The notes: generated by a model from the letters alone, not told the origin. 64,000 nt of DNA from Tubulanus polymorphus (GCF_964204645.1 NC_134027.1:14974485-15038484); one strand, 5' to 3'; shown: positions 6,977 through 28,504, counted from the first letter of the stretch. Translations and numbers: made by a program.

Positions 6977-7692
6977 CAGGGATGAGAACGCCGACCTGTA
7001 AAATCCGCGGGTTATTTTTCTTGAGTGACAAACGCGAACCAGCTGACGGCGCAGTTGTCAGCACTAGCGAGCGCAAACGGCGCGAAGCTATTTCGGGGGG
7101 GTTTGGGGGCCCTCCCCCAAGAAAATTTTAGAAATTAAATACGTTTTCCGAGCACTTACAGCGATCTTGAACCCATGAACGACTATTATATTTTGGAAGG
7201 TAATGGCTAGTTCCAATGTGGTACATCCTCATTTGATGACATTCAGCATCTCATGCATTACGGGTCGAGCCCTGAATTATTGCAGTAAAAATGCGCCGAT
7301 GAATGCTCACTAAAAATCATCACCAAGTAGTGTATAATATCCGAAAGCGTTCGCCACACACACGCAGCAACAGTAAGTAGACCTATATACATTACTACTG
7401 TTGCTGTGCGTGCGTGTCTGCAACCGATCGATAAAATACATAGGCTACACACTCATCGTAGTACAAATGTACATACAAAATCACTGTGTTGCAATGAATA
7501 TGCATTGAAATAAAACAGGCACTGAACGCTTTTACGGTTCACCTGATTACCGATCGCGCCGGACCAATTGAGTGAGATCATCACCCCCCCCCCCCATACT
7601 TTTACATCATTTTTGGACTATTTGGAAAATTGATATTTTTCAATACTGAAATCCGCGGGAAACCGCGGATCCGCGGGGAATTCTCATCCCTG
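6977..7692. mobile_element. MITE (non-autonomous DNA transposon)
   Basis: TIRs cagggatgagaa / ttctcatccctg, flanked on both sides by gtttat (6-bp TSD). Confidence 0.75.
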
Positions 7693-8825
7693 GTTTATTA
7701 AAGTCCTAAAACTCGCCATAAATTTGCGATAAATTTAAGCTGAAAATGATTTCAACCATCCGCCATCATGGCTGCATATTGTCCGCAGTAAATGACGGAT
7801 CCTAAACTGGTTACCGGTCTCTATCTTCAATTAGAGACCAGTTGTGCCCATCCTCCATTTTACATTTTCGATGCATGTCAAATAAGGTCAAACATGTAAA
7901 GTAGCAAATTACTTCCTGGTTAAGATGGCGTCTCTTCGAATCTGCTTAGCTTAGAGCGATATCAAAATTGCCCTTTACAATGGACGGAAAGACATTAATT
8001 GCTGTAAGTATCATATAAATCCGCTGATAATTTACCTGGTACTCGGAATACAAACTAACAAGGATCGAAATCTAATCAAAGGTGAGCTCTGTCACTGAAT
8101 ACAGAACATTCTGAAGGAACAGGGGACATCATTTCTATATCTACCGTTCGTGAGATGTATTTAGTGAATTGATGTTTTAATACAGGGTCGTAAAATGACT
8201 ATATTTACTATCTGAATAAAGTTTACAATTGTTAAACTCCTTAGTGCTATGTGAGATCAGATATTTGGATCCACCTCAGCCTCAGCCTGATTTCCTGATA
8301 CAGACAGCAAGTTGGGACAGTCAAATTAAGAGACTTGGTCAAGACAAGTTACTCAGATCACTGGAAATTCGCAATATCCTCTCTCCTCATGGACCACACA
8401 ATGTCAATGTTGACTTTGCTAGAAATCGATTATAAATTCATCACAACCAATTCTTTTTCACTGAATTCAATATTTATTGTTCACTTCTGGTACAAAATCT
8501 TGTTCAGCCCCTGACAAGAGAATAAGCAATGACACTACGTATTTCATGACATAGAACAGTAGTTTTTTTTTTTCATCGACAAATTGGGACGATCCTGATA
8601 TCCCTGATTTGATAAATAGTGTCTTTAGATTCATAAAGACTATGTCTCGACCAGACAGATAATCCAATAACAATTCAAATTGAAAGCTCGCTAGTTATTC
8701 ACAGAATCCAGCTCTTAAAACCTCATCAGTTTATCAGATCATGAGCAGTGGAGAAATAAAGTACTCAACATCTTGGCGCAGCGGCGCTTGCTGATGTAAC
8801 TGACGACAACGACAGTAATTGGGAA

Positions 8826-8883
8826 AGTGGGCTTTCATACCAGAGGACGAGAGGACGAGACACCACTCATCACCACAAGTAAT
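8826..8883 (+). repeat. Left terminal inverted repeat of the Polinton
   Basis: agtgggctttcataccagaggacgagaggacgagacaccactcatcaccacaagtaat is the exact reverse complement of 27128-27185. Confidence 0.95.
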
Positions 8884-8898
8884 TTTTTTTCCTAATAA

Positions 8899-11800
8899 AT
8901 GGGGGAGAATGAACACCAGCCAGAAAACAATGTTAATAAAAATCAATATTATTGCCAATATTGTAAAAAAATACGTCGATACATCTTATAAAACACGACA
9001 TGAAAAAACTGCAAATCATTTAAAAAATGTAATAGATTTTGAAACACCAGAAAATTCCAATGAAAGAAAAGAAAGATTAGAAAATATGAATGTGGATGAA
9101 ATAAAATGTGAAGTTTGTAATGAATTTATAGTAAAAAGGAATTATAATAGACATCTCGAATCACAAAAACACCATCAAAATTTGAGTAATAATGTTTTAG
9201 GAAAAGATTATTTCGATGATAAACCTCAAAAAGTAAAAAAACCAACTTCAAAAACTAAATCCATTTAAAATAAACCTTACATGGAAAATGTTAGAAATTA
9301 TATTGATTCACTAGAAATAAAAGATACAATTGAAATTTTAGAAACATAACATAGTAAAATTGGTCCTGCAGCTATTATATTTAGATTTTTTAAAGGTACA
9401 ACAATAGAAGATTATAGTAAATTTAATGAAATAATAGAAAAAATACTAGATTTGATAACAGATGTTGAATATCCAAAAATTAGTATCTCTGGGAAAGTAC
9501 GTTTTATAAAGTCAGAAGAAAAAATGGATTATAATATTCAAACACACTCTGAAGAAATAATTTCAAAAACACAAATAAAAGAGAAGTTAGAAAAAATATT
9601 TAATGAATTTAAACGTCATATTGAAGAAAGATATTTTGAGGGTTCTGGCTTAACATTGAATGAAATTATATATTTAGATTTAAATGTTTACAATACAAAA
9701 AGGAATAAAACATCAAAAAGTAATAAAATGTTTAAAAATGATTCAAACTTTACAACAGAAAAGGATATTAAAGCATCATCTTATATTAAATTACCATTTA
9801 CAACAAAAGCAGTAATAAATGTTCAAAATGAAGATAATAAATGTTTTCTATGGTCAATTATTAGTTGTTTACACCCAACAGAAGATATGACGCATAGTTT
9901 TAGAATAACAAATTACCGGAAATATGAAACATTATATAAAATTGATCAATATCCAGTAACTATAAAAATGATTCCTAAAATAGAAAAAGTTAATAATTTA
10001 AAAATAAATGTATTCGAATTAATGCAATTACCAAAGACAAAAGGTGAAAATATTAAAGATTATACATTGGAAGCTTTATATTCAACAGAATATTATGATG
10101 ATGAAAATGCTATAGATTTGTTATATTACAAAAAAAGATGAAAATGAACATTATATGTGGTTAAAACAAATTGATTTATTCTTTAGAACAGAAAGTGATC
10201 ATCATCATAAAATTTATCTATGTAGAAAATGTTTATCTAAATTTATGACTGAGAATACATTATTAAAACATAAAGAATTATGTGATAATAAAGAATTTTG
10301 TAAATTAATAATGCCAACAGAAAAAGATTATAAATTGAAATTTACTAATCATAAATTTAAGAATATTGTTCCATTTGTAATTTATGGGGATTTTGAATCG
10401 TTGAATAAAGAATTAACTGATCAAGATAGAAAAGAAATATATAACAAAAAGCAATTTCTAAAATCAATGGACAAAGGAAATGAATTAAATGAAGACATAA
10501 TTCAAGACCCACCAATCATAAATACAATTAAAAAAGTTCATCAAAGAGCTGCTGCTTATGGAATTTATATAAAATCAAATTATCCTGAATTATATGAAAG
10601 TCAATATATTTCTTTTAGAGGTGAAGATGTAGTTAATGATTTTTGTAACAAAATGATTGAATTAGAAAGTGATTTTGCAAAATTATTAAACAAAAATAAA
10701 AGAATAGTTATGACAAAAGAAGATGAAATTGATTTTAATTATGCAACTCATTGTTGTTATTGTGAAAAACGTTTTTATTCATTTGATAAAAAAGTTAGAG
10801 ATCATGATCATTTAAATTCAAAATATCGTGAAGCTGCTCATGAAGATTGTAATTTACAAGCTAAAAAAGTTAATTTCGTACCAATATTATTTCATAATTT
10901 ATCAGGTTATGATACCCATCTATTTATAAAACAATTATCAAGGGAATTGGGCACAATTAATCAAGAAATAGAAGAATATAATGCTATGAATGGTGTAAAT
11001 GTAAGAAAATATGATTTTAAACTATTAGCTAAAACATCTGAAAATTATATTTCATTTCAATTTGGTTGCATTAGATTTTTAGATTCTTATAGATTTCTAG
11101 CAAGTTCATTAGATAATTTATCAAAAAGTTTAGTTGATAATGATTTTGTTATAACTCGATACTATTATCCAAATGAACAAGATTTCAAATTATTGAGATA
11201 TAAAGGCGCAATTCCTTATTCATTTTATAAAACACACAATGATTTTAATGTAACAGAATTATTAAAAGATCAATTTTATGATCAATTAAAAGAGGAGTAT
11301 GTGAAAGACGATGTGTTTAATAGAACATTAAATATTTGGAACCATTTTAAGATGAAAAATCATGGTGAATTAGTTGATTTATATTTAAAAATCAGATGTT
11401 ATGATATTGGCTGACATATTTGAAAAATTTAGAGAAGTTAATTTGAATCATTTTAATGTTGATCCTTGTTATTGCTACTCTAGTCCTGGTTTAACCTGGC
11501 AATGTGGTTTAAAATACACAAATGTAGAATTAGATTTATTAAAAGAACCAGACATGGTTTTATTATTTGAAAAATCAATTAGAGGTGGAATTAGTGGTGT
11601 TATGGGAGATAGATATTTTAAAGCAAATGATGAATATAAATTATTATATATTGACGCCAATAATTTATATGGCTGGGCAATGATGCAACCCCAACCATAC
11701 AAAAATTTAATATTAACAGAAGTTGAAAATGATGATAAAACTGATTGGGAAAGCGCAATTGCGAGTTTAAAAGATGAAGCACCAATTGGTTATTTCTTTG

Positions 11801-13980
11801 TAGTTGATTTAGAATATCCTGAAAATATAAAGTTTAAAACAAGAAACTTACCTTATTGCCCAGAACATTTAACTGTAGATGACAGTTATTTAAGTGAATA
11901 TCAGAAGAAAATAAAACCGAAAGATCATGTTTTTACAGAAAAATTAATACTTACTCAAAATAATAAATATAATTATATTGTTCATTATAGAATGTTAAAA
12001 TTTTATCTAAAACAAGGAATGAAATTAAAGAAAGTACATAGATATATTGAATTTAATCAATCGAAGTGGTTAGAAAAATATATAGATTTTAATACTCAAC
12101 AGAGAACCATATCAAAAACAGATTTTGAAAAAGATTTCTTCAAATTAATGAACAATAGTTTTTATGGTAAAACATGTGAAAAAACTAGAAATAGAAATGA
12201 TATTGAATTAGTAAATAATTCTGAAAGATTAAGACATTTACAATCAAGTCCTAGACATTTAGGAAATAAAAGATTTGAAGATTATTTAACAGCAGTTAAA
12301 TTAAAAAGAACGTCAATGAAATTTAATAAACCTATATTCATTGGTTCAACTGTTTTAGAAGTATCAAAATTATTAATGTATGATTTTTATTATAATGTTT
12401 TACAACCACTTTTTGGGGAAAAGCATATTGAAATATTATATTTTGATTCTGTAACAGCTGACACCCCAATATTATTAAAATGTAATGATAAAATATTGAT
12501 AAGAAGAATTTCAGAAATAATTCCAAAACAAAATCAATGTTATATTTCATATGGTGAAAAAGAATTAATACAAATAAATGGATTAATGGATGTTTGGACA
12601 AGAAATGGATGGAAAAAATTAAAGAATATTATTAGGCATAAAACAAATAAGAAAATCTATAGAGTTAGAACTAAATTAGGGTTTGTAGATATTACAGAAG
12701 ACCATAGTTTAATTAAACGAAATGGTGATGAAATAAAACCAACTGATATAAAAATTGGAGATGAGTTATTACATAAAAGATTTTTCCAATGAATGAATCA
12801 TATGTCATTTGATGAAATAATTGATAATATTTATAACATAGAACCCGAAACATTAGAAGAAAAAGAATATTTTATCAAAGGATTTTTCATGGGTGATGGT
12901 TCAGCAGGCGTGTATAATTATGTTTGGGGTAATAAATATTGTTGGTATTTATGCAATCAAGACTTAAAATTATTAGAAAGAATTAAGAAATTCTGTGAAG
13001 AAGTTTATTCACATAAAACATTCCAAATCATAGATGTTATGAAATCATCGCAATGTTATAGAATACATGTGAATAATCCTAAAGATTTTGCTATAAAATA
13101 TAATGATGAATTCTATATTCATGCAATAGTGAAAAGTAATACTTCAACAAAAGAAAAGATAGTACCAGATTATGTATTAAATGCAAAAAAATAATTTAAG
13201 AAAGTGGTTCTTCATTGGATTCTATGCCACAGATGGCACTAAAAAATTTACAAAGGATAAAAAGACAAAAGATAAAAAACATTTGCACAGAAAGGAAAAG
13301 TTGCTATATCAGGATTAAATATATTATGCAGTTCATTAGGATTTAATATGAATATAGAATTAATTAAATCTAAACCAAATTGTTTTAATTTAAGGCATGT
13401 AGAAAAAGAATTAACAGAAGAAGTTAAAGATTTATTTGAAATATACAACCCAACAGATTATGCTTATGATTTATCAACAGATGATGGAACATTCAATTCT
13501 GGGTTCCCATTAATCCAAAAAAATACCGACAGTTACATACTAAAAATCAAGACAAATGACATAACAAAAGACTTAAAAACATTAAACCATCATTTTGATT
13601 TTAGCAATTATCCCAAAGATCATGAACTATTTAGCAATGATAATAAAAAGATTCCTGGTAAGTTTAAAGATGAATTAGGGGGTGATGAAATGATTGAATT
13701 TGTTGGGATAAGAAGTAAAATGTATAGTTACAGAACAAAAGATCATGAAGCTAAAAAGTTTAAAGGAATAACAAAACATGTGGTTGATAAACATATAGAA
13801 TTTCAAGATTATATAAAGTGTTTATATAAATCAATTGTAATGAAACACAAAATGAATTGTTTAAGATCAGAAGATCACGAGATGTACATTAATGAAGTTG
13901 AAAAAACTAGTTTGAATCCATTTGATGATAAAAGGCATATTTTAGATGATGGTATAAAAACATTACCTTATGGCCATTAA
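8899..13980 (+). pseudogene. polB: Protein-primed family B DNA polymerase (pPolB) with N-terminal zinc fingers, a vOTU-like segment, an exonuclease with an HNH/EndoVII-like insert, and an intein; disrupted
   Basis: Joined from ORFs 8819, 9452, 10155, 11401, 12793 and 13348 across frameshifts in A-runs and in-frame stops; likely start is the ATG at 8899 (MGENEHQ...YYCQYC). Motifs: Exo I IYGDFES, Exo II FHNLSGYD, FLDSYRF, motif A YIDANNLYG, motif B KLMNNSFYGK, motif C YFD/TDS (split by the intein), GKFKDE, SKMY, KGI, FDDKR. Confidence 0.95.
12448..13524 (+). mobile_element. Intein (Hint splicing domain plus LAGLIDADG homing endonuclease) in pPolB motif C
   Basis: 1077 nt, net in frame between YFD and TDS. 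Block A SVTADTPILL; block B VDITEDHSLI; block C FIKGFFMGDGS; block E WFFIGFYATDG (in a shifted frame, 13205-13237); block F AYDLSTDDGTF; block G LIQKN|T. Confidence 0.93.
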
Positions 13981-15304
13981 AACATAAAATCAATATCATC
14001 ATACTCGAAATCACTATTGGCTTCTTCATTTTCATTTAATTGTTCTTGTATAATTTGTTTAGGTTCTTCTTCCATTTCATTTTTCTCATTTAAATAAAGT
14101 TCTATCTTGTTCCACATTTCATCTCGCTCTCTTTGTTTCTTTTTGTTTGTTAATTCGTCAAATGGAATTATAATATCTATGTTTAAATAATTTACAATCT
14201 TAATTAAAAAGAATTCATAATTAATTGAATCTGTTATTCTATTTCTCAAATGATACATTAATATTTGTTTAAATATTTTTTTTATATTTACCATATCTTC
14301 TTCTGTTAATTTAGGTTTTTCATAATAATCGTTAAATAATAAATATAAATACATTTTCTTTTCTTTTGTGTTAAATGTTTATGGAATAATTGTTTTTATA
14401 ATATCTTTTTTAGTTATTTCACCATTTTTATTTTCTATTATTTTCATTTTTTCAAGCCATTGCATATATTCTGGTGTATGATCTTCTATAGAAAATATTT
14501 TAAAAATTTCATCTAGATAATTTAATTTTGGTTCTATGAGAAAATTTCTAGTTTTTTCTTCACCCCATAAATTCTTTTGCCATCCACAATAAACACAAAA
14601 TAACACAGTACCTTCTTGTCTTAAGGTCGCGTAATTACATTGTGGGCATTTTCGTTTATAATTTATTGGTAATAGATCTTCATTAAGCTCTTGGTATTTT
14701 CTTACGTTTTCTTTATGTTTTATTGTTCTATTATGTAGATTTGAATTACTTGTTGTAATAATCAATTTACAATATTTACAATAATATGTTTTTCTTGTTA
14801 ATTCATTATATTGTTTTTCTAACTATTCAACTGTTTCTTTATTATCTGGTAACGTTTTCCCATATTTTATTTTTTCTAATAAATTATTTTTTCTTTCATT
14901 GAATTCAGTTTCAAATTTATTAGAAATTTTATCTATATGTGCTTTACGAAATTGATGATTCAATCTTCTATATTTTCAGGGCTATATTTCATTCGACAAG
15001 GCTCACAGAAATGATCTTTTATATTATCCTTATCATAGAATAAGAAAGGTCTTTTACAAATAACTTCAGGTTCAACTTCAGCAGAATTACTATTACTTTC
15101 GTTACTATCAACATTAGCCGTTGCGCCATTAATTTTACACTTCTCTGAATGTTTTTTAACATAATTTCTTGAAAATAATTTATTACATTTTGGACAGTTT
15201 AGTTTAGGGGGTTTATAATTTTCATCATGTTTTTTCATATGTCGAGCCATATTACTTTTTCTTAGAAGTTCACCACAAATTTCGCATGGTATCTTCTCAT
15301 CCAT
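13977..15304 (-). pseudogene. Multi zinc-finger protein fused to a poxvirus VLTF3(A2)-like transcription-factor domain; disrupted
   Basis: ORFs starting at 15304, 14765 and 14354 join across frameshifts and stops. N-terminal CxxC...H fingers, then CPQC...G..FCVYCG, and a C-terminal F...INYEFFLIKIVNYL...D.MWNKI pattern typical of VLTF3-like proteins. Confidence 0.65.
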
Positions 15305-15360
15305 TTATTAGGGGAAAAAATTACTAGTGGTGATGAGGTAATTTTTTTATGTTATAAATA

Positions 15361-16121
15361 ATGGTAGAATTAAAAGAATACAGAATATTTGTTGATTCTA
15401 GAAAACTTACAAATTATAATTCACATAATTTATTAGTTCAATTAGATAGAGAATTCAAGAATTGTGTAGATTTAAAATTAGTTAATATAAGTTTATGTAA
15501 TTCTTTTTATAATATATCGGATAAAACTATTGAACATAGAGCCTTTTTAATTTTTGATAAAGGTAAAAATGAATGGTCCTATATATATTTAAAACCGGGG
15601 TTATATAATTTAGATACATTAGCACAAGAAATTAATAGAAAAGCCTGGCACAAATTAGGTAGTAGTTCTGGGTTTAGTATTAGATTTTTAAAAAGTGATA
15701 GTTCTGATAGAATAAAGATAAGGTTGTCTAATAGTGAAAAACATAAATTTATGGTAAAAAAACCTATAGCTAAACTGTTAGGAATTCTTCCAGATATATC
15801 TTTTAAAAATATTGATGCTGTTACACCAAACTTAATACCTTACACACATTTTTATATTTATTGCAATTTAATCGATCCTACAAAAACATTCGAAGCAACT
15901 AAAGATATAACTTGTAATTCTGGTTTACTAAACATTTTACCATTGAAGAATGTTAAAGAATTAGGAACGCAAATAAATTATAATTTAACAGAATGTGATT
16001 TCAAACCATGCATTCCTCGTTTAATAATTTTAGATTAGAAATTAGAAATCACAATGGTTACTTAATTGATTTAAATAATTTCCCTGTAATTTATGAATTA
16101 GTTATAAGATGTACAGAGTAA
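15361..16121 (+). pseudogene. Minor capsid protein (penton, single jelly-roll), C-terminal frameshift
   Basis: IFVDSR...YNI...PGLYN...FYIYCNLI...LLNILP. The shifted frame continues as FRLEIRNHNGYLIDLNNFPVIYELVI, a typical minor-capsid C-terminus. Confidence 0.75.
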
Positions 16122-16137
16122 TTTTTTCACTATATAA

Positions 16138-16392
16138 ATGAATATAACTGTTGGACCGAGTATATGTTTTGGGTTTGATTTTAAACATGGTAAAGAAATG
16201 AGAATTAAACTAAATGATGTAATTACTGATATAAAAAGTAAATCATTTAACAATGCATCAATGATTAATAAAGAAAACTATAATATAGAAAAAGTAATTG
16301 ATTTAATCAAATCACCTTTAGAATATTATGAATTAAATGAAGATGGAATTATTGATGATATTAAAAACATAATGAAACAAATGTTGAATTAA
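16138..16392 (+). CDS. Polinton hypothetical protein (84 aa)
   Basis: Intact ORF preceded by the element's TAATTTTTT...ATAAATG motif. Confidence 0.65.
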   Translation: MNITVGPSICFGFDFKHGKEMRIKLNDVITDIKSKSFNNASMINKENYNIEKVIDLIKSPLEYYELNEDGIIDDIKNIMKQMLN

Positions 16393-16445
16393 TCATCACT
16401 AAGATAACTAAATATTTTGATGATAGTAATTTTTTTGATGAATAA

Positions 16446-16664
16446 ATGAGTGATAATAAGTGGATAATAACTGGATTATATAATGGAGCATTACTATCAG
16501 TTGGAACTGTTGGTTATTCAATGGTATTAAAAGTATTTAAAATGGGAAGTGTTAATGTTGATAGATTTGATATAAATGATATCTTAAAATTAACATTAGC
16601 AGTTACTTTATCCAATTTAACTATTGATTATTTGGAAAAACAAAAATATATTCCTCCCATATAA
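16446..16664 (+). CDS. Small Polinton membrane-type protein (72 aa)
   Basis: Two hydrophobic segments; shared start motif. Confidence 0.7.
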   Translation: MSDNKWIITGLYNGALLSVGTVGYSMVLKVFKMGSVNVDRFDINDILKLTLAVTLSNLTIDYLEKQKYIPPI

Positions 16665-16688
16665 ATGTGTAATTATTTTACTAAATAA

Positions 16689-17111
16689 ATGGCTTCTGTA
16701 ATTATAACTATTATAGGATCGGCAATTGTTAACGCTTTAGCATTTACTGGTGGTGGATATTTATTTAAGCATATTGATAAAAATGGATCATTAACAGAAC
16801 AAAAAAGACATAACTTAGCATTAGAGAAATACAATAAAGCAGCAGAAGAATACAGAGAAAAACGACAAAACTATATGGATTATATTAACAAGGAATTATA
16901 TGATCAGAAGATTTCACATAGAGATTTTCAATCAGTTGATGATGCAATGAGTTTATATAACGCGGTAACCAATAAAGAAAAATTACATCTATACAAACCT
17001 AAATTATCAGATTATTATACCCCAAGTAAAGAACAACAGAAATATGAAATAATATGGATTTTAGGTGGAACAGTTATTGTTATATTTGTAGCATATAAAT
17101 TTACTAATTAG
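16689..17111 (+). CDS. Polinton protein with N- and C-terminal hydrophobic helices (140 aa)
   Basis: MASVIITIIGSAIVNALAFTGGGYLF...EQKRHNLALEK; C-terminal TM helix; shared start motif. Confidence 0.75.
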   Translation: MASVIITIIGSAIVNALAFTGGGYLFKHIDKNGSLTEQKRHNLALEKYNKAAEEYREKRQNYMDYINKELYDQKISHRDFQSVDDAMSLYNAVTNKEKLHLYKPKLSDYYTPSKEQQKYEIIWILGGTVIVIFVAYKFTN

Positions 17112-17130
17112 TAATTTTTTTTCTAAATAA

Positions 17131-17589
17131 ATGGAAGATAAAGTTGATAGTATTGATATTATTCCTCATGATATAAATAAAACTAAATTAAAAACATATT
17201 AAGAAAAACAAATATTAGAATTTGAAAATGACTTAAAGATAAAAAAGAAAAAATATTTAAAAAGTAAAATTATATATTATCTTATTATTAGTGGTTCGGT
17301 TACAATTAGTTCTGTAATAACATTTCTCGCAATATTCAGTCCATTAACACCTTTAGCTATATCAATTGGTGTATTAGGATTAAGTTCAAGTGTTTTAACT
17401 GGTATAAGTTCAAAATTAAATATAAAAAGTAATAAAGAAAAAATTAAAACTAATATAAAAGAAATTAATAAATTAAAGAATGCACTAGGTTATATAAGTT
17501 TGAATGGTCATATTACAGTTGAAGAACAAGATAAATTATTAAAAGAATTAATAAATTATAAATTTTTTAATTATATAAATGGCAGATAG
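17131..17589 (+). pseudogene. Two-TM coiled-coil Polinton protein with one premature stop (17200-17202)
   Basis: ATAAATG start. Reads MEDKVDSID...*EKQILEFE...IIYYLIISGSVTISSVITFLAIFSPLTPLAISIGVLGLSSSVL; not in the supplied ORF track. Confidence 0.65.
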
Positions 17590-18929
17590 TTTTCCAAAAG
17601 CTTTCCAATATAATAAATCAATTAAATATAATATTCCAGCAATAGATTTTAATAAAGATATTACATATAGAAATGAAGTTTTAGATTCATTAACTAATTT
17701 AGAAATTTATGTTACTGAAACTAATAATTTTAATGCAAAGATGGAAAATATATTTCATGTATATTTAATTAATTTTAAAAAATTGAAAGATGAAAAACAA
17801 TGGTTATTAAAATCTAATATAAAGTTTTGGCAGAACCAATTAAATTTTGCTGTTTATTGTGCAACAACAGGATGTGGAATTAGTTGGAATGATCATTTGA
17901 ATAATTCTAAATATAAATTAATTCAAAGTTTATTTAGATTTCATACATACTTTCAAATCAGAATAATATTAAATGAATTAGAGTATGCTTTACCAGGATC
18001 TAGATATTTTAAAGAAATTTGTAATGAATTTAATATAGATATAAATAATTCTGATTTTAGAACAAAAATTGGAACAATAAGATCACTTCCTTGCCCTAAA
18101 AAGATTGCAGAATATTGTGCACTTCCCATACCATCTAATAGTTTATATAATATCTATAGTAATAAATTAGGTGGTAAAATAGAAACTAAGGATTTAGAAA
18201 CATTCAATTTCAATAAATTACCGACATTTTATGATAATTCAAAACAAGAAAACAATAATGGTTGGGTTTATTTCATTTTAGAAATAATAATGAAGGTTTT
18301 ACAAAATCAGGTATACAAAGAATAAATCAATCTATTAGAACTTATTTGATATGTATTTTAGGTGCGCAAGTTGAAACAATATCCCCAATAATTGGAAATT
18401 TAAATACATCATTTGATACACAGAAACAATTCAAAGTATTATTTGAAGATTCTATTCATAATGATAAAAATAGATCGATTCCAGAAAACATTGTAAGATA
18501 TCAAAATTATTTAGATAAATCACATATTAGATTAAATTATTGTATAGGCCCTAATCTATTAATTATTTCTAATGATTTAGTATTAAAGAGGGAAATATAA
18601 TTGGTTATAATAATCTAATTAAAACTGCAACAATAAATAATTCATTTGGATTGAATGATATAAATAAAAAGATTATTACTGCTCCAAAATTAATGGAAGG
18701 TGAAAAAAATAAAAAACACATTCAATCAACAGAAACTAAAACTAATAATATCAAATTAAATAATGATTCTAAAATAAAAGATTAAAATACATCAGAAGAT
18801 ATAAAAACTGATAACATTCAGTATGAAATAATTAAACTAAATGATGATAATAAATCCCATGAAAATACTAAATTAGCTTTAACTTGTATAGGAATTGTAA
18901 TCGGAGGAATATTATATTTTAGATTTTAA
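17579..18929 (+). pseudogene. Polinton protein of unknown function (WQNQLNFAVYCATTGCGIS motif), frameshifted, C-terminal TM
   Basis: ORFs 17579 and 18262 plus a shifted tail ending in a hydrophobic helix (LALTCIGIVIGGILYF). Confidence 0.65.
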
Positions 18930-18939
18930 TTTTTTTATT

Positions 18940-20382
18940 ATGTTAATGGAAGAAGGTGGAGAAGATTATGAAATGGAAGGCATGGGAAATAATGATGATG
19001 CCAATACAAACGATGATGATTATATGACTGCTGATACTAATATTGATAATGATAATGATACAACATATAATTCTAATTTAGCAGATAGTGGTTCTAAAGC
19101 CCCATCAACAGATGAATTTGATAGAAGAACTAGGTCGAGAATACCTCCTGAAAATTTAAATCAAGGTTTAGAAAGAGAAAATTTTGAAAATTATGAATTT
19201 ATGTATGATTTTCAACGTGTATTTAAAGATTCTGGATATAATATAAATAATAGAGGCGCCAGACTTTTAGTACAAGATTTAAAGTTTTTAGATGGTGAAT
19301 ATTATTATCGTGTGAAAGAAAAATCGGATTATTATATTAATATCTCTAATAAAAATCAAGACAAAATAATAGCAAAATCAACTTTGCTTAAGTCTGACTC
19401 ATTACTATCTAGAATTAAGAGAATAAGAAATAGTAATGAAATAGAAGATGTAACACAAGAAGAAATAAATCAAAATAAAAGAGTATTTAAACGAAGAATT
19501 AATAAATTATTTGAAACAATCAAAGATAATCCAAAAACAGAAACAACTTCTGAACAGAATATAACTTCCAAAACTAGTAAACTTAAATCAAATAAAGTTC
19601 CAATTGAAAAACTTTTACCAAATGGATTAATTGATGCAACAGACCAACAATTAGAAGATTTAAATAATATATTTTCTGAAAAAGCAATAAGATAAAATTG
19701 CGCATGATAAAAGTATAAGAGATTTAAAAATAGAACTTTAGAAGATGAATTATTTAAATCAAGAAAAGAATCGGAACAACTAAAATTAGATAGAGATAAT
19801 AAAGTTATTGAAGAAATCGAATTTAAAAAAAGAAATGCATATTTAGAAAAAGAAATTGATGATTTAGAATATAACATAGAATTACAAAAAGAAGAAATTA
19901 AATTATTATTAAAATCATATGATTATTATATTAATAGATTAAAAGTTATTTTTAAAGATTTATTGATAAAACCAAATTCTGAAATATCATTGAAAGATAG
20001 AATAAAGTTATTATTTAAATTAGAAGGAATAACAATTCTTTCAATTCTAACAGCTGTAACTATGTTATTTACAACAATTGGTTTAGCAATATCAAATGCT
20101 TTAAAATCTACTCCTACTCCAAATAAACCAGATAAACCCCCAGATAATAATTCTATACAAGATAAAGTTAAGGATGGTTTAAAGAAATGAGCAAAATATT
20201 TATGGGAACTATCTAAAAAATCTGCTGCAGCTTTACCAGGAGTTATTGCATCAATTGTTGGTTTTATATTGAAATCTGCAGGAAATATTCTTAACTTTGC
20301 TGCTGAACATATTATTTTATTCTTAATTACAGTTGTAAGTGCTATTATTTTTGGGCTAGTGAATATGATTAAAAATAAATGA
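18940..20382 (+). pseudogene. Large acidic/coiled-coil Polinton protein with C-terminal hydrophobic helices; disrupted
   Basis: ORFs 18940 and 19963 and downstream read-through: LFKLEGITILSILTAVTMLF...KKSAAALPGVIASIVGFIL. Confidence 0.65.
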
Positions 20383-20402
20383 TTAATTTTTTTGTTAAAT
20401 AA

Positions 20403-21650
20403 ATGAGTGGGAGTTATATAAGTCCTTCTAAGATTTCTAGAATATCTAATGCTATTAAAGCAGAAAGATCTCATCATATAATTACTCATAATCCTTCAAA
20501 TATTAATCCCGATGAAACTTTATATGTTAGAATTCCTAGATTAACACAAAATACTTTTTATGTTCCAAATAGTATTTATTTATCAGCCGATATAAAAGTA
20601 ACCGGTCATGATAATAATTATGTTGTCGATAATGTTGGAAGATATTTGATTAAAAAATTAACTATAAAGATTGGACCAGAAACAGTTTTCTCATTAGATG
20701 ATTATAATTTATTTATGCATTATAAAGATTTATGGTTAACTAAAGAAAATAGAAATAATATGATATTTCAAGGCATCCAATCAGAAAACCATAATAAATT
20801 AAGATCAGGAGCTAATGACGCAATAGTAACTCGTGCCACTGATAATTTGATTAAAAAGATTTATGGAAGCAAATATAAAATTCCATTAGACTTTGAATTG
20901 ATAAATAATAATGCACCTTTACATAAATACGCAATTCAAGAAGATATTATATTTGAGATAACATTTGCTCCTGTAAATGAAATTGTATTATCTAGCGTTG
21001 TTTAAGATATGGGTTATAAATTATCAAATATATGTTTAGAATATGACACAGTAACTAATGAAAATATTGCTAGCACAATTCAAACTCAATACAATCAAGG
21101 ATTTTCATTATTATATGATTATATTGATAAATTTAAAACTGTAACTATTAATGCAAATGATGAAATAATTAATGAGAATATTAACTTCCCAAGAAGATCT
21201 ATTAAAGGTATATTAATATCTTTTACCATTGCAACATATACTAATGGCGCAATAAATGTTGATAATTATTATAATCCTGAAATAACAAAAGTAGAAATAA
21301 CTATCGAAGGAATAGCAAATAAATAATTTTGTCAAGGAATGAGAATGATAGATCAATGGCCAGAAATTAGAAAACATTTTATGAATGAAAAAGTAAAATC
21401 ATTTGAAAATTGTAATATTAATCAAATTGATTATTATACCGGTAATAAACATGCATTATGGTTAGATTTTAGAACAACAGAGGATAATTCATTACATGGT
21501 TCTGGAAAAAAATTACAAAACACTAAAGATGGAATACAATTATTCATGACAAAGAAAAAAGGGAGCCTAAATTTCAAAATGCATATTTATATTATATCTG
21601 ACGCGCAATTAAATATTATAAATTCACAATTAGATAGTATTCAATATTAG
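20403..21650 (+). pseudogene. Major capsid protein (double jelly-roll), two in-frame stops
   Basis: ORFs 20403, 21009 and 21339 are all in one frame (~415 aa): HNPSNINPDETLYVRIP, DNVGRYLIKKL, NINFPRRSIKGIL, YYNPEITKVEITIEG, ALWLDFRT...HGSG, IISDAQLNI. Confidence 0.8.
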
Positions 21651-21680
21651 AAATATAAAGTTAAAATTAAGGATATATAA

Positions 21681-24529
21681 ATGGGTGGTAAAAAAACTCC
21701 TAATACTAAAGAACAATATTTAAGAAATTTATATTACAACCCCAAGTTCGGTTGCTTATTCTTCTACCAAAAATATATGGCGTCAAGTAAAACAAGATAA
21801 ATTAGATAAGATAATCCCACAAAATTTAGTTAAATATAAAGATATAAATGAATTTATGTTAGAACAACCAACATACACAACACATAAAAAAATTGTTAGA
21901 AAATATAAAACTCGTAAAACTATGGTAAGTTATGTAGATCAACAGTGGCAAGGAGATTTAATTGATATGAAAAATGTTAAGAAAGATAATGATGATTATT
22001 GGTGGTTATTGAATATAATTGATATTTTTAGTCGTTATGTATGGAGTTTCCCACTTTATAGAAAAGATGCTGTACAAACATCAAATGTTTTAAGAAAATT
22101 TCTTTCAGATGATAAACTAAAACCAGAAAAAATACAATTTGATGATGGAAAAGAGTTTGATAATTCACTTGTTCATGAACTCTTAGATAATCATAATATT
22201 AAATATTTTTCAACAAAATCGGATAAAAAAGCAGCAGTTGTTGAACGATTTAATAGAACATTAAGAACAAGAATGTGGAAATATTTTACAGCAAATAATA
22301 CTTTTAAATGGATTGATGTTTTACCAAAATTGATAGAAGGATATAATAATTCTTATCATTCTTCTATTGGAATGAAACCTATTGATGCTAGAAAACCTGA
22401 AAATGCTGAAATTGTTTGGAATAATTTATATGGAGCATTTCTTGTAGATGATTTTGGTGAACCTAAATTTAAAGTTGGTCAAAATGTTAGAATTTCTAAG
22501 TATAAAAAGATATTTGACAAAGGATACGATCGAAATTTTACTAGGGAAATATATAAATAAAAAAGGTAATAACAATAAATTGCCCATGGGCAAAGTGTGG
22601 TTTACCTTGAAAGCTAGATGTTGTTTGGAATAAGGGCATTGCTTGAAAAATCTTTTCAATTCCTGACCTCAAAGTTCCACAGTTTATATCGAATTTTATC
22701 TTTCTTAAAGAATTATTTTGTAGTCAAATAAGACCAAAGATATACATTTGTTTACGGTCACAAAATTTTGTAGGGTACAGGTAGGCGCGGCAGGGAAACT
22801 ATTTTATATTTTCAAAAAAATATGTTTCAAAATATGAAAAAATATTCAAATAAGTCCATCCCAAAATAATTGTCTGTTTGCCGTAACACCGACTCAACTT
22901 TTCAGGATGAGTCGGTAGGTAGGTAGAACTTTTTTTTTGCAAAATTTTTGGGAAAAAAAAACAAATTTTTTATCTTTGGGCTTTTTTAAATGGAAACAAT
23001 ATTGCAAAAGAATCATCTACGTTGTGCACGGGAAATTTGTCTAATAGCGTAGATTTAAAGAATTATTCTAAAATTATAACTTTGTCCAGAGCATCATCTC
23101 CGTCTTAAAAATGAAACAGTACATTGAATATGTGCGCGGTTTTACGTTACCAGCTTTGATATAGTCACTATGAGAATGAATGCCAGCTTATTGGAACACT
23201 GCCAGTTTCCTGGAAAACTTAAACTAAGCCACATGTCAAGGCATGTTTTCACACGATGCACACTTGAATTCAAACATACGTAGCTCGTCGGCAGTGGGTC
23301 GGCCGTTTTTATCAAAAATAAAATTTATTTCAATGAATCTCAGAAAAAAGTTTTCACTTGGTACCTTTGAAGTCGGTCAGTCGGGTTACGGCAAACAGAC
23401 AATTATTTTGGGATGGTCTAAAATTCATATGATGTCACATATCAGAGGGTGGCTGAATATTGGGTCTTGGAAACCTTTCCCAATGTTGGCCACGGAAGCT
23501 AAAATACTGGTCAGAAGAAATCGGCTATTAGATCGTTTTAAATCCTGGAATTTACCACTACAATATTCAGACCTCGACAGACCTTATAGTTTGCTGCTTA
23601 GTATTTTCAGGTCATAAGAAATTACAATTTATTACAAATTCTATCGAACAGAAAACACAGCGCTCATCTTCTGCTACGATTATTCAGCCTATTTTCATGT
23701 CAAACGTGCACACGTTACAGCATCACCCTTAGTAGTGTACTGTACGAGCTTAAGTGTGTGTGTGTGGTGTAGCACTCCGTGCGCATGTGGAGGCCTCGTG
23801 TAAGTGAATATTCGCTTTCACCTCAATTTCAATCAAAACAATCACCGGGTATTAAAATGAAACAATACCTATGGCGGATGTGTGAAATAATTACATCCTC
23901 ACCAGCAATGAGCATTTGAAATTCGCACGTATTCGGCACCTAGTCCAATGAAACGTACACCATTCTATGGCTTTCCCATGATTATTTTAGTAGCGCCGGA
24001 ATTCCACGTATATCCCAAAAACAGCCAATCACATTCGCTCGTAGAGACGACGCCCCCCAATCGAGGTCATTGCAATTTTATACACGAGAGCTAAGAATTT
24101 TCCCGCCAAAAACAGTTTTTCGTAGAATTTTAACTCAGTTGACCATGTCATCGACGGACGTTCGCCATGTCTTCAATCGCATCGTTTATACGTCGTTTAA
24201 GCCGAGGACCAATGAAACAAATGCTCACATAAAAAAACGTACCGCAATTTTACATGAATTGGCTCAATGCCAACATCATATCGCTGACAAAGGTAAACCA
24301 ACAAAACCATATGTCTATAAATTAGAAGATTTAGATGGTGAAGAAGTTGATGGCTACTTTTACGAAGAAGAATTAAGTTTAACTGCTAAAACTCTAGAAC
24401 AAGAATATAAAATTGAAAAAGTATTAAAAACAAAAACTATAAGAAAAAAAATATTCTTTAGTAAAATGGGTTGGATGGCCAGATAAATTTAATGAATGGA
24501 TATTATCAAGTAAAATTAAAAATATATAA
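21681..24529 (+). pseudogene. Retroviral-like (rve, DDE) integrase with C-terminal chromodomain, split by a 1726-bp insertion
   Basis: WQGDLIDM, IDIFSRY, QFDDGKEF, VERFNRTLR. Resumes at 24301 as TKPYVYKLEDLDGEEVDGYFYEEEL...YKIEKVL...VKWVGWPDKFNEWI (chromodomain). Confidence 0.92.
22575..24300 (-). mobile_element. Family-H Helentron-like non-autonomous element inserted into the Polinton integrase
   Basis: Removing it restores aag gta ata aca|aca aaa cca (KVIT|TKP). A|A (TT) target, no TSD, subterminal inverted repeats plus terminal palindrome; second copy at 2099-5696. Confidence 0.85.
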
Positions 24530-25138
24530 ATGAATAAGGAATTATTTATATTTGAGCCTCATAATATGTTAATTTCTGGCGTAACAAATTGTGGAAAAAC
24601 TTATTTTATATTAAATTTATTAGAAACTGTTTATGAAAACTATTTTGATAATATAGTATTATTTTGTCCAACATATGAATTTAATCAAACTTATGATAGA
24701 TATATTACTAGAAATAATAAATTTATTATATTAGATCCTAAAACAGTAAAAGAAAATTTAGATAATTGTATAAAAATAGCAATTGATATTTATAAAGGAT
24801 CAAATACATTATTTATCATAGATGATTGCGCAAATTTACATGATTCAAAAGTTAGAGAAAGTGAGTTATGCTATTTAGCTTTTTCTGGCAGACATTTTGG
24901 GATAACAACTTGGGTTTTAAATCAAAAATATAATTCAATTGTTAAAGACTTTAGAGAAAACATTAGATTTCTAGTTTTATTCTACAATAAAGATAGAAAA
25001 TCGATGAAAAATGCACTTGAGGAAAATGATATTATTCCACATGATTCACATAATGAATATATGGATAAGTTGAAAGATATTAAAAAATCAAAATTACTAT
25101 TTAGATTACAACACCCATTTAAATATGAATTTATTTAA
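24530..25138 (+). CDS. A32/FtsK-HerA-like DNA packaging ATPase
   Basis: Walker A GVTNCGKT, Walker B FIIDD, GRH and NQ motifs; intact 202-aa ORF. Confidence 0.92.
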   Translation: MNKELFIFEPHNMLISGVTNCGKTYFILNLLETVYENYFDNIVLFCPTYEFNQTYDRYITRNNKFIILDPKTVKENLDNCIKIAIDIYKGSNTLFIIDDCANLHDSKVRESELCYLAFSGRHFGITTWVLNQKYNSIVKDFRENIRFLVLFYNKDRKSMKNALEENDIIPHDSHNEYMDKLKDIKKSKLLFRLQHPFKYEFI

Positions 25139-25412
25139 ATTCAACTAGCTTGTTAATCTAGTTGAATTCTAGTTACATTCTAGTTGAATTCTAGTTATTG
25201 GTAGTTGTAACAAAAATCAACTAGATTAAACAATATTTTAACTAGCTTGTTAATCTAGTTTAATTCTAGTTACATTCTAGTTGAATTCTAGTTGTTAGTA
25301 GTTGAAACAAAAATCAACTAGATTTAACAAGAAATAAACAAAAACAACAATATTTCAACTAGCTTGTTAATCTAGTTGAATTCTAGTTACATTCTAGTTG
25401 AATTCTAGTTGC
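25139..25412. repeat. Intergenic tandem/palindromic repeat block (three ~100-bp units rich in CTAG and GAATTC)
   Basis: caactagcttgttaatctagttgaattctagttacattctagttgaattctagtt occurs near 25142, 25239 and 25355. Confidence 0.85.
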
Positions 25413-25442
25413 AACATCACAACTAATTTTTTTGTTATATAA

Positions 25443-26048
25443 ATGGTAGGTGAAAAGAAAATAAAATCTAAAAATGGTGATGTTCCAATTGAAAAAACTT
25501 TAGATGATTTAGGAATAACAGAAAACAAATTAATTCCAGATGATGGTGCTTTAAATAATGTTACAACAAATAATAATTATGAATATTATCTTTACTGTAA
25601 ACATCAATTAGAAATATTAATAGCATCTGGAAAATGTAAAAATTTTGTCGGTAAAAATTTAACTTATAATGAATTAGATACAATGAAATCAGATGAAATT
25701 ATTAGATTATTTAAGATTTATGAAGCCGCGAGAACAGCTAGAATTAAAGACGCGATATCAGAAAATGTAGTAAAAGGTTATAGTAAATTATGTAATTATA
25801 TACTACCAATTGAAGATGAAAATAGATTATATTCCGATTTAAAAAATGATTATTTAGTTATGACTGAATTAAATAAATGGATTGGATATTTATCATTTCA
25901 ATTAGGTGGATTTATGACATTATTATCAACTGGGGTTATAACATTTTCAAATATTGAAAGTAAAAATTTTTCTATAATAAATGAGCGAGGTGGAAGAAGT
26001 GAAGGAATTAACTGTGAAGAAAAAACCGAGATCACAGAAACAAATTGA
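25443..26048 (+). CDS. Polinton hypothetical protein (201 aa)
   Basis: Intact ORF; shared start motif; C-terminal hydrophobic segment. Confidence 0.7.
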   Translation: MVGEKKIKSKNGDVPIEKTLDDLGITENKLIPDDGALNNVTTNNNYEYYLYCKHQLEILIASGKCKNFVGKNLTYNELDTMKSDEIIRLFKIYEAARTARIKDAISENVVKGYSKLCNYILPIEDENRLYSDLKNDYLVMTELNKWIGYLSFQLGGFMTLLSTGVITFSNIESKNFSIINERGGRSEGINCEEKTEITETN

Positions 26049-26391
26049 ATGGTCTCGGAAATTAGGAATTAAATCACAAGAATATAAAAAAGCTGTAAAA
26101 GAAAATGTTAATATAAGTAATAAAAATGTTAATAAAAATGGTGAAAATATTGTTATTTCTAATCCTTCTAATGATAGAATATTTGATAAATGTCTATATT
26201 TTACAGTTGGATTTGTAATTGTATTCATTTTGATTGGGTGTAATTGGTATAAGAAATCAAATAAAATTCATGGTATTAATAATTCTGAAACAAATGCTAT
26301 CAAAAATGAAAATACTTCTGATATTCCAAAATTGACAATAAAAAAATGGATGAATATTTTAAAAAAGCAAAAAAATTATTTTTTTAATTAA
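25981..26391 (+). CDS. Polinton hypothetical protein with a basic N-terminus and one TM helix
   Basis: KKKPRSQKQIEWSRKLG; TM LYFTVGFVIVFILIG; ATAAATG start. Confidence 0.65.
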   Translation: MSEVEEVKELTVKKKPRSQKQIEWSRKLGIKSQEYKKAVKENVNISNKNVNKNGENIVISNPSNDRIFDKCLYFTVGFVIVFILIGCNWYKKSNKIHGINNSETNAIKNENTSDIPKLTIKKWMNILKKQKNYFFN

Positions 26392-26494
26392 TTGAATTCC
26401 CACTACTTTTGTCTATCTATGCGGAGCAATTAAATTGTCCAGATAAGTCATTTCGGATTCTTGATATTCATTTTTTTATTATTTTATTAATTAT

Positions 26495-26818
26495 TTAGTC
26501 AACAACTTCTAAATCATGATGCCCATCTTCATTTTTTCCATGATAGATTATTTTAAATCCTTCTAAACCTTTTAATTCATCTGTACTCAATGAAACCCAT
26601 TTATCAGGTAAAAATACTTTAAATTCTCGCGATGTACTAACATTGCAGTAGCTTAAATTAGCTGATACTTTCTCTCTATATTTAGTTTTTATCTTTTCTA
26701 ATTTCAATATTTTATGTTCAATTTCTTTTGTAACATCAACTAACTTTATTTCAAATTGTTTTTTTGCTGGTTTTATTCTGTTATTTATTGTTGCTAAGAA
26801 TGCTTTTCTATCTCCCAT
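26495..26818 (-). CDS. Polinton hypothetical protein (107 aa) reading inward from the right end
   Basis: Intact ORF preceded by catcaccacaagtaatttgttttccttataaATG. Confidence 0.7.
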   Translation of the reverse strand: MGDRKAFLATINNRIKPAKKQFEIKLVDVTKEIEHKILKLEKIKTKYREKVSANLSYCNVSTSREFKVFLPDKWVSLSTDELKGLEGFKIIYHGKNEDGHHDLEVVD

Positions 26819-27127
26819 TTATAAGGAAAACAAATTACTTGTGGTGATGGGTGGGGATTACTTCCCCCTGTATATAACAAACACGCTAATAACCGTTCTC
26901 ACCCAAGCCTCACAGCATCTATTTATCTGGGCACAGTTTACACGCAATCACTGTACTACAGTAATAGCACACGCGTTAATAACCGTTCTCAGTAGAGACT
27001 CACTGTATCGATCTATCCACGCGCAGCTGTTGTTACGCACACTCACTGTATATGTGTACCACAGAGCAATCGTCCGTTCTCACTAGAGCCTAGCTGTGAT
27101 GAGTGGTGTCTCATACTCAATTGAATT

Positions 27128-27185
27128 ATTACTTGTGGTGATGAGTGGTGTCTCGTCCTCTCGTCCTCTGGTATGAAAGCCCACT
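27128..27185 (-). repeat. Right terminal inverted repeat of the Polinton
   Basis: Exact reverse complement of 8826-8883. Confidence 0.95.
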
Positions 27186-27453
27186 TAATGGTTCAGAATC
27201 CATTTTTCAAACTTACCTTAATGCATTGCAATCTATTCTTTTCATGTTGAGCTAATTAGATACACATTACTTCAATTTCTTAAAACATCCTACGAGTTGG
27301 GACTCACAAACTCATCACTAAAACGCTCACAATAATCTACAATAGATAATCAATATAGTGATTGTGAAATAGCACTCATATTCAATGTTCACATTTTTAC
27401 GAAGTAAGTAAGTAGGTGAAATTACCTTGTTGATGTCATTATTTTCACTGGAT

Positions 27454-28504
27454 CAACTGCTTCATCTAGCATTAAAAAAGGGCAGGGTGCTGATTTCAAA
27501 TAAGGGCATTTTTGTGCGTACTTCCATCGGACCAAGGGCACATAATAACGCGGTCACGTCTGTTTTAGGGGCAAACTGCAATGTTCCCTATTGCATAGAA
27601 TCGAGGTACCCCCTACTACAATTGAGGACTAGAAACTATGTTTAACTCTGATTTTGCCATGAGTGACACACTTAACCACAGTACATCCTTACACCTATGC
27701 CTGTCAATGAAGAAAAGTTAATCTATAAAGGGCTTTCAAAATGATTTGGAAAATCAGTTGCAGACAAAAAAATTGCAGAAAAAAGCAATCTCAAGTAGTA
27801 AATACAGCGACAAAGAGCCAGCAATAGTGTATAGGCCTACATGAAATTGCATATTTTTAATCTTAGAAATATCAAATTAATTGGTTTAAATTGATAGTGT
27901 TAGTGATTGGCAAGTAACTGTTGATAATTGGTACGCAGCCAGCTTAAGAACACATTATTGCTATTAGGCTACTCAAACTAATTGTCTGTGCGAGTCTCTC
28001 TGTCAGTTCACCGAACAAAGTTTTTCACCTTGTATATATAAAATTTGTCTAATAGTCTAGATAAAAAGATCCAGAGCATCACGATGTGTTCAAAACGAAA
28101 CAATCCAGCTTTACAACGGCAGTCGCTAGAATGATTGGCAGTAGTTTGGAAGTCAGCCAATATCCTGGAAACTTAAACTAGGCCACGCGTCTGAGGCACG
28201 TTTTCACACGATGCACACTGACTGCAGTACATTTGAATATAACAACTGATCACATGAGCTACTATCGTTGATATCATACGAGATATTTCATAGCCGTCGC
28301 AGGAAACTTACTAACAGTCGGATGCGTCGGCTTATTTTGAAAGCCCTGACTCATTACTCGTGACTGACAAGGGCAGGATGGCGGACCTACGGCAAGTGAT
28401 GAGGGCACAAGGGCGAGCATGGGACACATCTAAAGGGCACAAGGGCGGCTATTTTCGGGGGCGGGGCGGACCGCCCTTCTATTTTTTGGCTAGATGAAGC
28501 ACTG
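27454..28504. mobile_element. Probable non-autonomous TIR DNA transposon
   Basis: tgcttcatctagc near 27458 and gctagatgaagca near 28489, with subterminal aagggca repeats; no clear TSD. Confidence 0.55.

Follow-up and report, generated by a model that had tools for sequence, protein, structure and literature searches.

A fixed-spacing TAAATG start motif resembling poxvirus late promoters in a decayed Maverick/Polinton of Tubulanus polymorphus

Which RNA polymerase would read an element in which nearly every gene begins with the same short motif? This question is raised by a decayed Maverick/Polinton at positions 8825-27186 of a 64,000-nucleotide stretch of Tubulanus polymorphus DNA (GCF_964204645.1 NC_134027.1:14974485-15038484; hereafter, the window). 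An original prediction, made from the sequence alone, placed ATAAATG over the start codons of 13 of about 15 genes, likened it to the vaccinia late promoter, and proposed that these genes are built for a viral rather than a host RNA polymerase II (Pol II) transcription system. In the present study, we determined the spacing of the motif, its conservation in related elements, and the genes that accompany it. With somewhat better than even confidence, we read the motif as a start signal addressed to a viral RNA polymerase, that of a co-infecting large DNA virus, with each gene as a separate unit and a protein like the poxvirus late transcription factor 3 (VLTF3) assisting; the helper would most likely be poxvirus-like.

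The mimicry of helper promoters by protist virophages and the association of polinton-like viruses (PLVs) with poxviruses in insects are known already (PMC11296320), and a Maverick-Polinton virion is stated never to have been seen (bioRxiv 2026.06.19.733378). Within the open-access literature, as distinct from subscription papers and supplements, we found no description of such a motif in animal Mavericks. The word 'promoter' does not occur in the main text of PMC8502044 or PMC11131425, nor do 'promoter', 'TAAAT', and 'VLTF' in the main text of PMC11296320.

Position and spacing of the start motif

We scored 15 starts, namely the 13 originally listed and those at 15361 and 18940. Fourteen of them have an orthologous start in a related locus, L001; the remaining one, at 8899, was called from frame content alone. 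All 13 listed heptamers include the ATG at the coordinates claimed. Across the window, ATAAATG is barely enriched (46 occurrences versus 34.7 +/- 6.4 in shuffles, 5 of 100 shuffles reaching 46); thus, the signal is positional. TAA directly precedes the ATG at 13 of the 15 starts; among the element's other ATGs, with the host insertion excluded, it does so at 35 of 664 (Fisher p 2e-14), and among ATGs that come first after an in-frame stop, at 35 of 462 (p 2e-12). An enrichment over the AT-rich background, which the original prediction needed, is found at the gene starts. TAA together with a T-run of at least 5 occurs at 9 of 15 starts and at 1 of the 664 other ATGs.

The spacing of the motif is rigid, with T at -19 (12/15), A at -18 (13/15), T at -14 and at -13 (14/15 each), A at -4 (14/15), and T at -3 (13/15), giving a layout of T-19, A-18, T at -14/-13, and ATAA at -4 to -1. 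The spacer of four to eight nucleotides proposed earlier must be abandoned, as its apparent variation is the length of the T-run; a T-run of at least 5 upstream of 'most' starts was found, but at only 10 of 15. The stop directly before the start ATG is always TAA (13/13) and never TAG or TGA, whereas the background contains 35 TAA, 15 TGA, and 14 TAG. Around TAAATG, the sequence is AATAAATG, with AATAAA inside it, at seven of the 13 starts and TATAAATG at the other six; the base after the ATG is G in eight and A in five.

The start at 15361 reads TAAATAATG, the variant originally noted. At 18940 there is indeed no exact match, but a near match sits before a second ATG (18946), and the L001 orthologue has TAAATG. 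The minus-strand start at 15304 had been taken for that of a separate 114-aa gene; it is instead the start of a broken zinc-finger and VLTF3-like gene that extends to 13977. In agreement with the original prediction, the TAA is mostly not the stop codon of the upstream gene. The gaps at the seven starts measured come to 19, 20, 24, 30, 53, 99, and 304 nt; one start falls within the preceding open reading frame (ORF), and those at 8899, 15304, 15361, and 26818 have no co-oriented upstream gene.

A further sequence, the CATCACCAC box, is present at 8868, 15327, 26841, and 27135, upstream of the starts of the gene for a protein-primed type B DNA polymerase (pPolB), the VLTF3-like gene, and the ORF at 26818, and in both terminal repeats. 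The box is absent from L001. It is possibly a second promoter class or a copy derived from the terminal repeat.

Conservation of the motif in related elements

Capsid alignment gave 44 metagenome loci. In L001, a relative with about 76% capsid identity, TAAATG is found at 15 of 15 gene starts versus 22 of 389 other ATGs (ORF 7588, an internal piece of the split integrase, was left out). The 14 orthologous pairs of starts from the window and L001 are identical in 11-14 cases at -19, -18, -14 to -12, and -4 to -1, and in just 3-8 cases in the flank from -35 to -20. L001 also contains a deoxynucleoside kinase gene (10340-10981, minus strand; PF01712, E 2e-31) that starts with TAAATG; the kinase gave one match, at 37%, which is uninformative.

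For the other loci, we counted starts supported by homology, that is, N-termini aligning to the L001 or L016 genes of another locus. TAA precedes the ATG at 33 of 37 such starts in L001-L014, L020, and L021, and at none of 35 in 13 other loci; one gene of L031 outside this count has TAA-ATG. The lineages without TAAATG have a purine at -3 in 32 of 35 starts. In a capsid tree of the 27 loci with a usable N-terminal capsid frame, the 14 TAAATG rows and L011 form one branch (support 100/98), L020 and L021 form a second group, and three motif changes are needed. TAA-ATG is present at 18 of 20 supported starts in ten loci with a GC content of 0.30-0.44, and at none of eight in the AT-rich relatives L015, L018, L025, and L026 (0.29-0.31). 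The motif follows the capsid tree, not the GC content.

Transcription factor, intein, and candidate helper

The VLTF3-like gene matches the Pox_VLTF3 profile at 13980-14354 on the minus strand (E 1.8e-6, 28.2 bits, cut-off 25). Single natural proteins of 446-707 aa align with all three of its pieces (15304 to 13977) in consecutive order; thus, the VLTF3-like gene itself starts with the motif. For a structure model of the C-terminal stretch (pLDDT 74.7), the top fold match was cowpox VLTF3 (prob 1.00, TM 0.66, E 4e-3), followed by entomopoxvirus VLTF3 and then mimivirid ones; the solved structures gave no match for this model. With three VLTF3s of pox type the domain reached 37, 32, and 4 bits, and with four taken from giant-virus bins it stayed below 0. 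By these comparisons, the factor appears closest to poxvirus-type A2. A scan of 1.8 billion proteins gave five homologue matches, one of which was spurious (a terpene synthase), and word-index searches for homologues returned nothing or just the query itself. The sole full-scan match with the Pfam VLTF3 family is a protein with an A2L zinc ribbon, which is 63% and 50% like genes on two contigs of entomopoxvirus size, presumed to be entomopoxviral. Homologue P0030 had an Atlas value of 0.95 to a VLTF3 cluster, and P0029-P0031 did not reach the Pfam VLTF3 family at E 0.01. VLTF3 has been reported in polintoviruses (PMC11131425, PMC8502044, PMC11244446), including those of corals (PMC11131425). 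Among the 65 proteins scanned, with the element spanned from one terminal inverted repeat (TIR) to the other, there was no Pfam match to an RNA polymerase, a TATA-binding protein (TBP), or a capping enzyme; VLTF1 and VLTF2 were not found, and no VLTF2-like Pfam match was present among these proteins.

The pPolB gene contains an intein (TIGR01445, 33 bits, cut-off 24.5). Over its N-terminal part, this intein shares 36-60% identity with those of 42 viral loci among the viral contigs searched. Of these loci, 23 have the intein at the YGD/S site of giant-virus PolB and 17 lie on GVMAG contigs. This kinship suggests an earlier co-residence with giant viruses. That inteins have invaded polinton pPolB has been noted in general (PMC11071308).

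In the vaccinia late promoter, TAAAT overlaps the start codon, in most cases with a G after it, and a T-rich stretch upstream includes a conserved T at a distance of ten nucleotides (PMC11980589). That T corresponds to -13 here, which is T at 14 of 15 starts in the window and in L001 alike; the G or A after the ATG is shared as well (PMC11980589, PMC5294985). The likeness is thus closer than the original prediction claimed. In the vaccinia intermediate complex, a TAAA initiator is read by the polymerase subunit Rpo132 (PMC12917281), and genes of salmon gill poxvirus were annotated by means of TAAATG (PMC4542343). Unlike poxviruses, the element uses the motif at nearly all genes, polymerase and integrase included, has an extra conserved TA at -19/-18, and lacks recognizable genes for RNA polymerase, capping enzyme, VLTF1, and VLTF2.

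A different layout was found in a sister Maverick, L016 (623-9361) and L017, with a GC content of 49%. TATA lies 5-20 nt before the ATG at 10 of 11 L016 starts, and in most of these a T tract is found about 11-14 nt upstream. This pattern, spotted after the fact, resembles the late promoter of African swine fever virus (ASFV), with TATTT at -15..-11 and TATATA at -1..+5 (PMC5294985); the window element itself has a different motif. Were it a Pol II TATA box, a TATA so near the ATG would place transcript starts within the ORF.

As a whole, the element resembles Mavericks/Polintons (Polintoviricetes, 'adintoviruses') in its size of about 18 kb, TIRs, pPolB, rve integrase, A32 ATPase, and major and minor capsid proteins (PMC8502044, PMC11131425), and differs in the two-part fixed motif at nearly every gene and the intein in motif C. 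With virophages and helper-dependent PLVs (mavirus/CroV, Sputnik/mimivirus, PgVV/PgV), it shares a small integrating double-stranded DNA form, the absence of an RNA polymerase, and a promoter motif of large-virus type (bioRxiv 2022.07.28.501842). Those systems, however, have protist hosts and mimivirid helpers demonstrated by experiment, and Sputnik and mavirus use the late promoters of their helpers (bioRxiv 2022.07.28.501842), whereas the present element has an animal host, a motif of poxvirus type, and a helper that is predicted. The PLVs associated with entomopoxviruses are likewise Polinton-like and have been proposed as poxvirus hyperparasites in animals (PMC11296320).

From these data we infer the start site, polymerase, compartment, and helper as follows. 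Every gene would be its own transcription unit, and its RNA would begin within the AAA just ahead of the ATG. On this view, the T at -3 would lie outside the mRNA, which would explain why a base poor for scanning ribosomes is fixed there. It would be replaced by a 5' poly(A) leader made by slippage, as in poxviruses. The VLTF3-like protein would help to recruit the helper polymerase or to tune it. The site of transcription would be the cytoplasm, and in the nucleus of the host the element would consequently stay silent until infection by a helper, as for mavirus.

Whether transcription was nuclear or cytoplasmic was approached through the poly(A) signal. Sense-strand AATAAA occurs at 4-6 per kb in the window and the AT-rich motif-bearing relatives, and the observed numbers are close to those expected from synonymous shuffles (56 vs 57 in the window, 65 vs 64 in L001, 62 vs 66 in L003-5). 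An entomopox-like control did not avoid it either (86 vs 93), whereas those AT-rich relatives that lack the motif have fewer copies than expected (10 vs 18; 0/500 shuffles). The poxvirus early terminator TTTTTNT is also depleted (5 vs 10 in L001, 1 vs 7 in L003); A-runs and the antisense pattern are equally depleted, and this candidate was dropped as general homopolymer avoidance.

The chief alternative, which we regard as unlikely but worth serious attention, is that host Pol II transcribes the element in the nucleus after redirection by the VLTF3-like factor, in which case the element would be an autonomous virus that does without a helper and has a minimal late switch. The element encodes a VLTF3-like factor and a polymerase of its own, its integrase must reach the nucleus, and the many diverged copies of the family in the host's runs indicate efficient spread. 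An RNA polymerase is missing from some large DNA viruses that have VLTFs. VLTF2/VLTF3 are present in mriyaviruses of 35-45 kb (bioRxiv 2026.06.19.733378), and in Amoebidium 32% of adintovirus genes, though not the capsid genes, come on after demethylation with no helper added (PMC11244446). However, the VLTF3-like and pPolB genes share the same motif, which leaves no clear host-type early promoter to begin a cascade; the sole candidate is the CATCACCAC box, at three starts and missing in L001. The retention of AATAAA, the reading of the vaccinia TAAA by a viral polymerase (PMC12917281), and the lack of TBP-like or VLTF2-like Pfam matches among the proteins scanned argue in the same direction. 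If this alternative were true, it would give a first function for a Polinton VLTF3.

Three other explanations deserve less credence. That the motif is a translation signal, in which an in-frame stop before the ATG and an unstructured T tract serve re-initiation on read-through RNAs or block N-terminal extensions, is improbable. The TAA is in frame with the ATG, and three of 13 neighbouring starts in L001 lie 0-3 nt from the upstream stop, but TAG and TGA are never used in its place, the -19/-13 spacing holds at divergent and terminal genes, and TATA at a variable distance from the ATG in the sister lineage fits a transcription start rather than a ribosome signal. Very improbable is a 3' signal of the upstream gene, either an AATAAA poly(A) signal or a T-run terminator, packed against the next start. 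The AATAAATG form and T-runs, often close behind the upstream stop, would suit it; the six TATAAATG starts would not, and the full motif is present where no gene ends upstream (8899, 15304, 15361, 26818), at 25443, which is 304 nt past the last stop, and at 25981, within a coding sequence. We give almost no weight to the idea that the motif results from an A+T content of 76% and from bias in ORF finding: the heptamer is common in the window, but the composition-matched and first-after-stop nulls give p values below 1e-11, and the motif is kept at GC 0.39-0.44 and absent at 0.29-0.31 in other lineages.

Several points weigh against the favoured reading. The fold E-values are weak, none being 1e-3 or better, and seven VLTF3 comparators were scored. 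The intein points to giant viruses other than poxviruses, whereas the VLTF3-like factor points to poxviruses. L016 has a weak VLTF3 match (6543-7052, E 6e-4; its own start lacks the TATA layout) yet a different motif; thus, a VLTF3-like factor alone does not explain TAAATG. In four giant-virus bins, TAA-ATG is found at 9/25, 8/41, 4/22, and 7/21 ORF starts, counts biased upward because the bins were picked through a motif match, and at 4/9 and 4/9 starts in two entomopox-like loci; the helper therefore need not be a poxvirus. The two locus sets were defined after the capsid starts had been seen, and several loci are near-copies, so that the 37 and 35 starts are not independent. The AATAAA test has low power where codons are very AT-rich, and TAAATG loci at GC 30-44% show a mild deficit (15 vs 20.7; 29/500). 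The Amoebidium result also belongs here. The strict motif gave 46 single matches in viral contigs, and no contig stretch had more than one. Genome-wide, matches against the reversed control numbered 1 vs 1, 15 vs 3, 3 vs 2, 5 vs 4, 18 vs 10, 74 vs 52, 50 vs 59, 31 vs 32, and 12 vs 5; none of these is a convincing match. The original proposal of viral rather than host Pol II transcription gains independent support, not noted in it, from the VLTF3-like gene, the giant-virus-type intein, the absence of an RNA polymerase, and the lack of AATAAA avoidance. It stays a suggestion: TAA-ATG is frequent in non-poxvirus giant-virus bins too, and host Pol II driven by the element's own factor keeps a lesser probability.

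In a giant-virus bin, one gene start of L059 (998-1504, minus strand) is nearly identical to the element motif; the strict pattern occurs once in this 279-kb bin.

If the motif is a promoter for a poxvirus-type polymerase, it would explain the silence of Mavericks in animals, predict a large DNA virus infection as the trigger, and carry virophage biology beyond protists into animals. More tentatively, and with less than even confidence, we suggest that an animal Maverick branch consists of virophages of Pokkesviricetes-type viruses, with lineages tuned to poxvirus-like (T tract and TAAATG) or asfarvirus-like (T tract and TATA) helpers and both carrying a VLTF3-like factor. In that case, undiscovered large DNA viruses of invertebrates would have left a readable record in these start motifs, and endogenous Mavericks would be a reservoir of inducible antiviral defence in animals. 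The entomopoxvirus-associated PLVs reportedly come from insect poxvirus occlusion bodies and are described as highly diverged PLV lineages.

The element and its surroundings

The element is a stretch of about 24% GC against a background of 37%, bounded at both ends by a perfect inverted repeat (Table 1). It contains rve integrase, A32 ATPase, capsid, and pPolB genes, and most of the long ones are broken. In a Pfam scan of 22 ORFs, the integrase match was above the cut-off and the Capsid_N match of the major capsid was under it (E 1e-3). The capsid has 28 homologues of 362-420 aa, with identity up to 78% (homologues of about 415 aa); no capsid relatives were found in viral contigs. The pPolB gene, which is in several pieces, is 42-52% identical by tblastn to the polymerase ORFs of L006/L029 and has no match to a Pfam polymerase family; its naming also leans on what we take to be polymerase motifs. 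No cysteine protease, typical of group 1 Mavericks, was matched among the 22 ORFs, which fits group 2, to which the element may belong. Mavericks/Polintons are expected to have a 6-bp target-site duplication; a clean one was not seen at the ends of the element.

Table 1. Features of the element, in window coordinates
Feature	Position	Strand	Basis or remark
Left TIR, 59 bp	8825..8883	+	Paired with right copy, 100% complementary
Right TIR	27128..27186	-	Partner of left copy
pPolB gene, broken	8899..13980	+	tblastn to L006/L029; motifs
pPolB intein with internal stops, in motif C (YFD / TDS)	12448..13524	+	TIGR01445
Zinc-finger and VLTF3-like gene, 3 pieces	13977..15304	-	PF04947
Likely minor capsid protein	15361..16038	+	Weak DUF5901; putative label
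84-aa ORF	16138-16392	+	Motif-led start
72-aa conserved ORF	16446-16664	+	Conserved in relatives
140-aa conserved ORF	16689-17111	+	Conserved in relatives
Broken gene	17131 to about 17560	+	SLATT-like match, weak
Broken conserved gene	17579 onward	+	
Broken conserved gene	18940 to 20382	+	Orthologue in L001
Major capsid protein gene, three pieces	20403..21650	+	Weak Capsid_N; homologues
rve integrase gene, broken, interrupted by host repeat	21681..24486	+	PF00665, E 9e-11
A32-like packaging ATPase	24530..25138	+	PF04665, E 1e-14
201-aa conserved ORF	from 25443	+	Conserved in relatives
136-aa ORF	from 25981	+	Start within preceding coding sequence
107-aa ORF	26495-26818	-	
Start motif, pPolB	8880..8901	+	CATCACCAC box precedes at 8868
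Start motif, VLTF3-like gene	15302..15323	-	CATCACCAC box at 15327
Variant start motif TAAATAATG, 15361 gene	15339..15363	+	Divergent from 15304 start
Start motif, 84-aa ORF	16119..16140	+	
Start motif, 72-aa ORF	16427..16448	+	
Start motif, 140-aa ORF	16670..16691	+	
Start motif, broken SLATT-like gene	17112..17133	+	
Start motif, broken conserved gene (17579)	17560..17581	+	
Near-match start motif, broken conserved gene	18927..18948	+	
Start motif, major capsid	20384..20405	+	
Start motif, integrase	21662..21683	+	TAAATG, T tract short
Start motif, ATPase	24511..24532	+	TAAATG, T tract short
Start motif, 201-aa ORF	25424..25445	+	Upstream stop 304 nt away
Start motif, 136-aa ORF	25962..25983	+	Inside upstream coding sequence
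Start motif, 107-aa ORF	26816..26837	-	CATCACCAC box at 26841

A host repeat of about 1.7 kb (about 22565-24298) splits the integrase; it resembles window positions 4781-5449, and contigs of three runs join across it. In run X2, one contig joins both flanks across the whole element (8803-27185), suggesting an empty allele; its short side is 31 letters. The public runs of one study contain thousands of diverged contigs of this Maverick family. The depth of contigs from the element to the host repeat (window 8500-27500) is about 1-3 in runs X1-X3 and about 0.02 in X4; X2-X4 are one sample.

Between the ATPase and the next gene (25140-25450) there are three 97-nt repeats with abundant short CTAG palindromes in them. 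The subterminal region (26860-27127) contains short repeated blocks and a partial second copy of the terminal repeat near 27097-27113. The flanks contain frames like those of long interspersed nuclear elements (LINEs) that look animal by eye. Among them, an 881-aa open frame (54986-57979, minus strand) resembles, by eye, a LINE endonuclease/reverse transcriptase and, with other repeats, supports an animal host.

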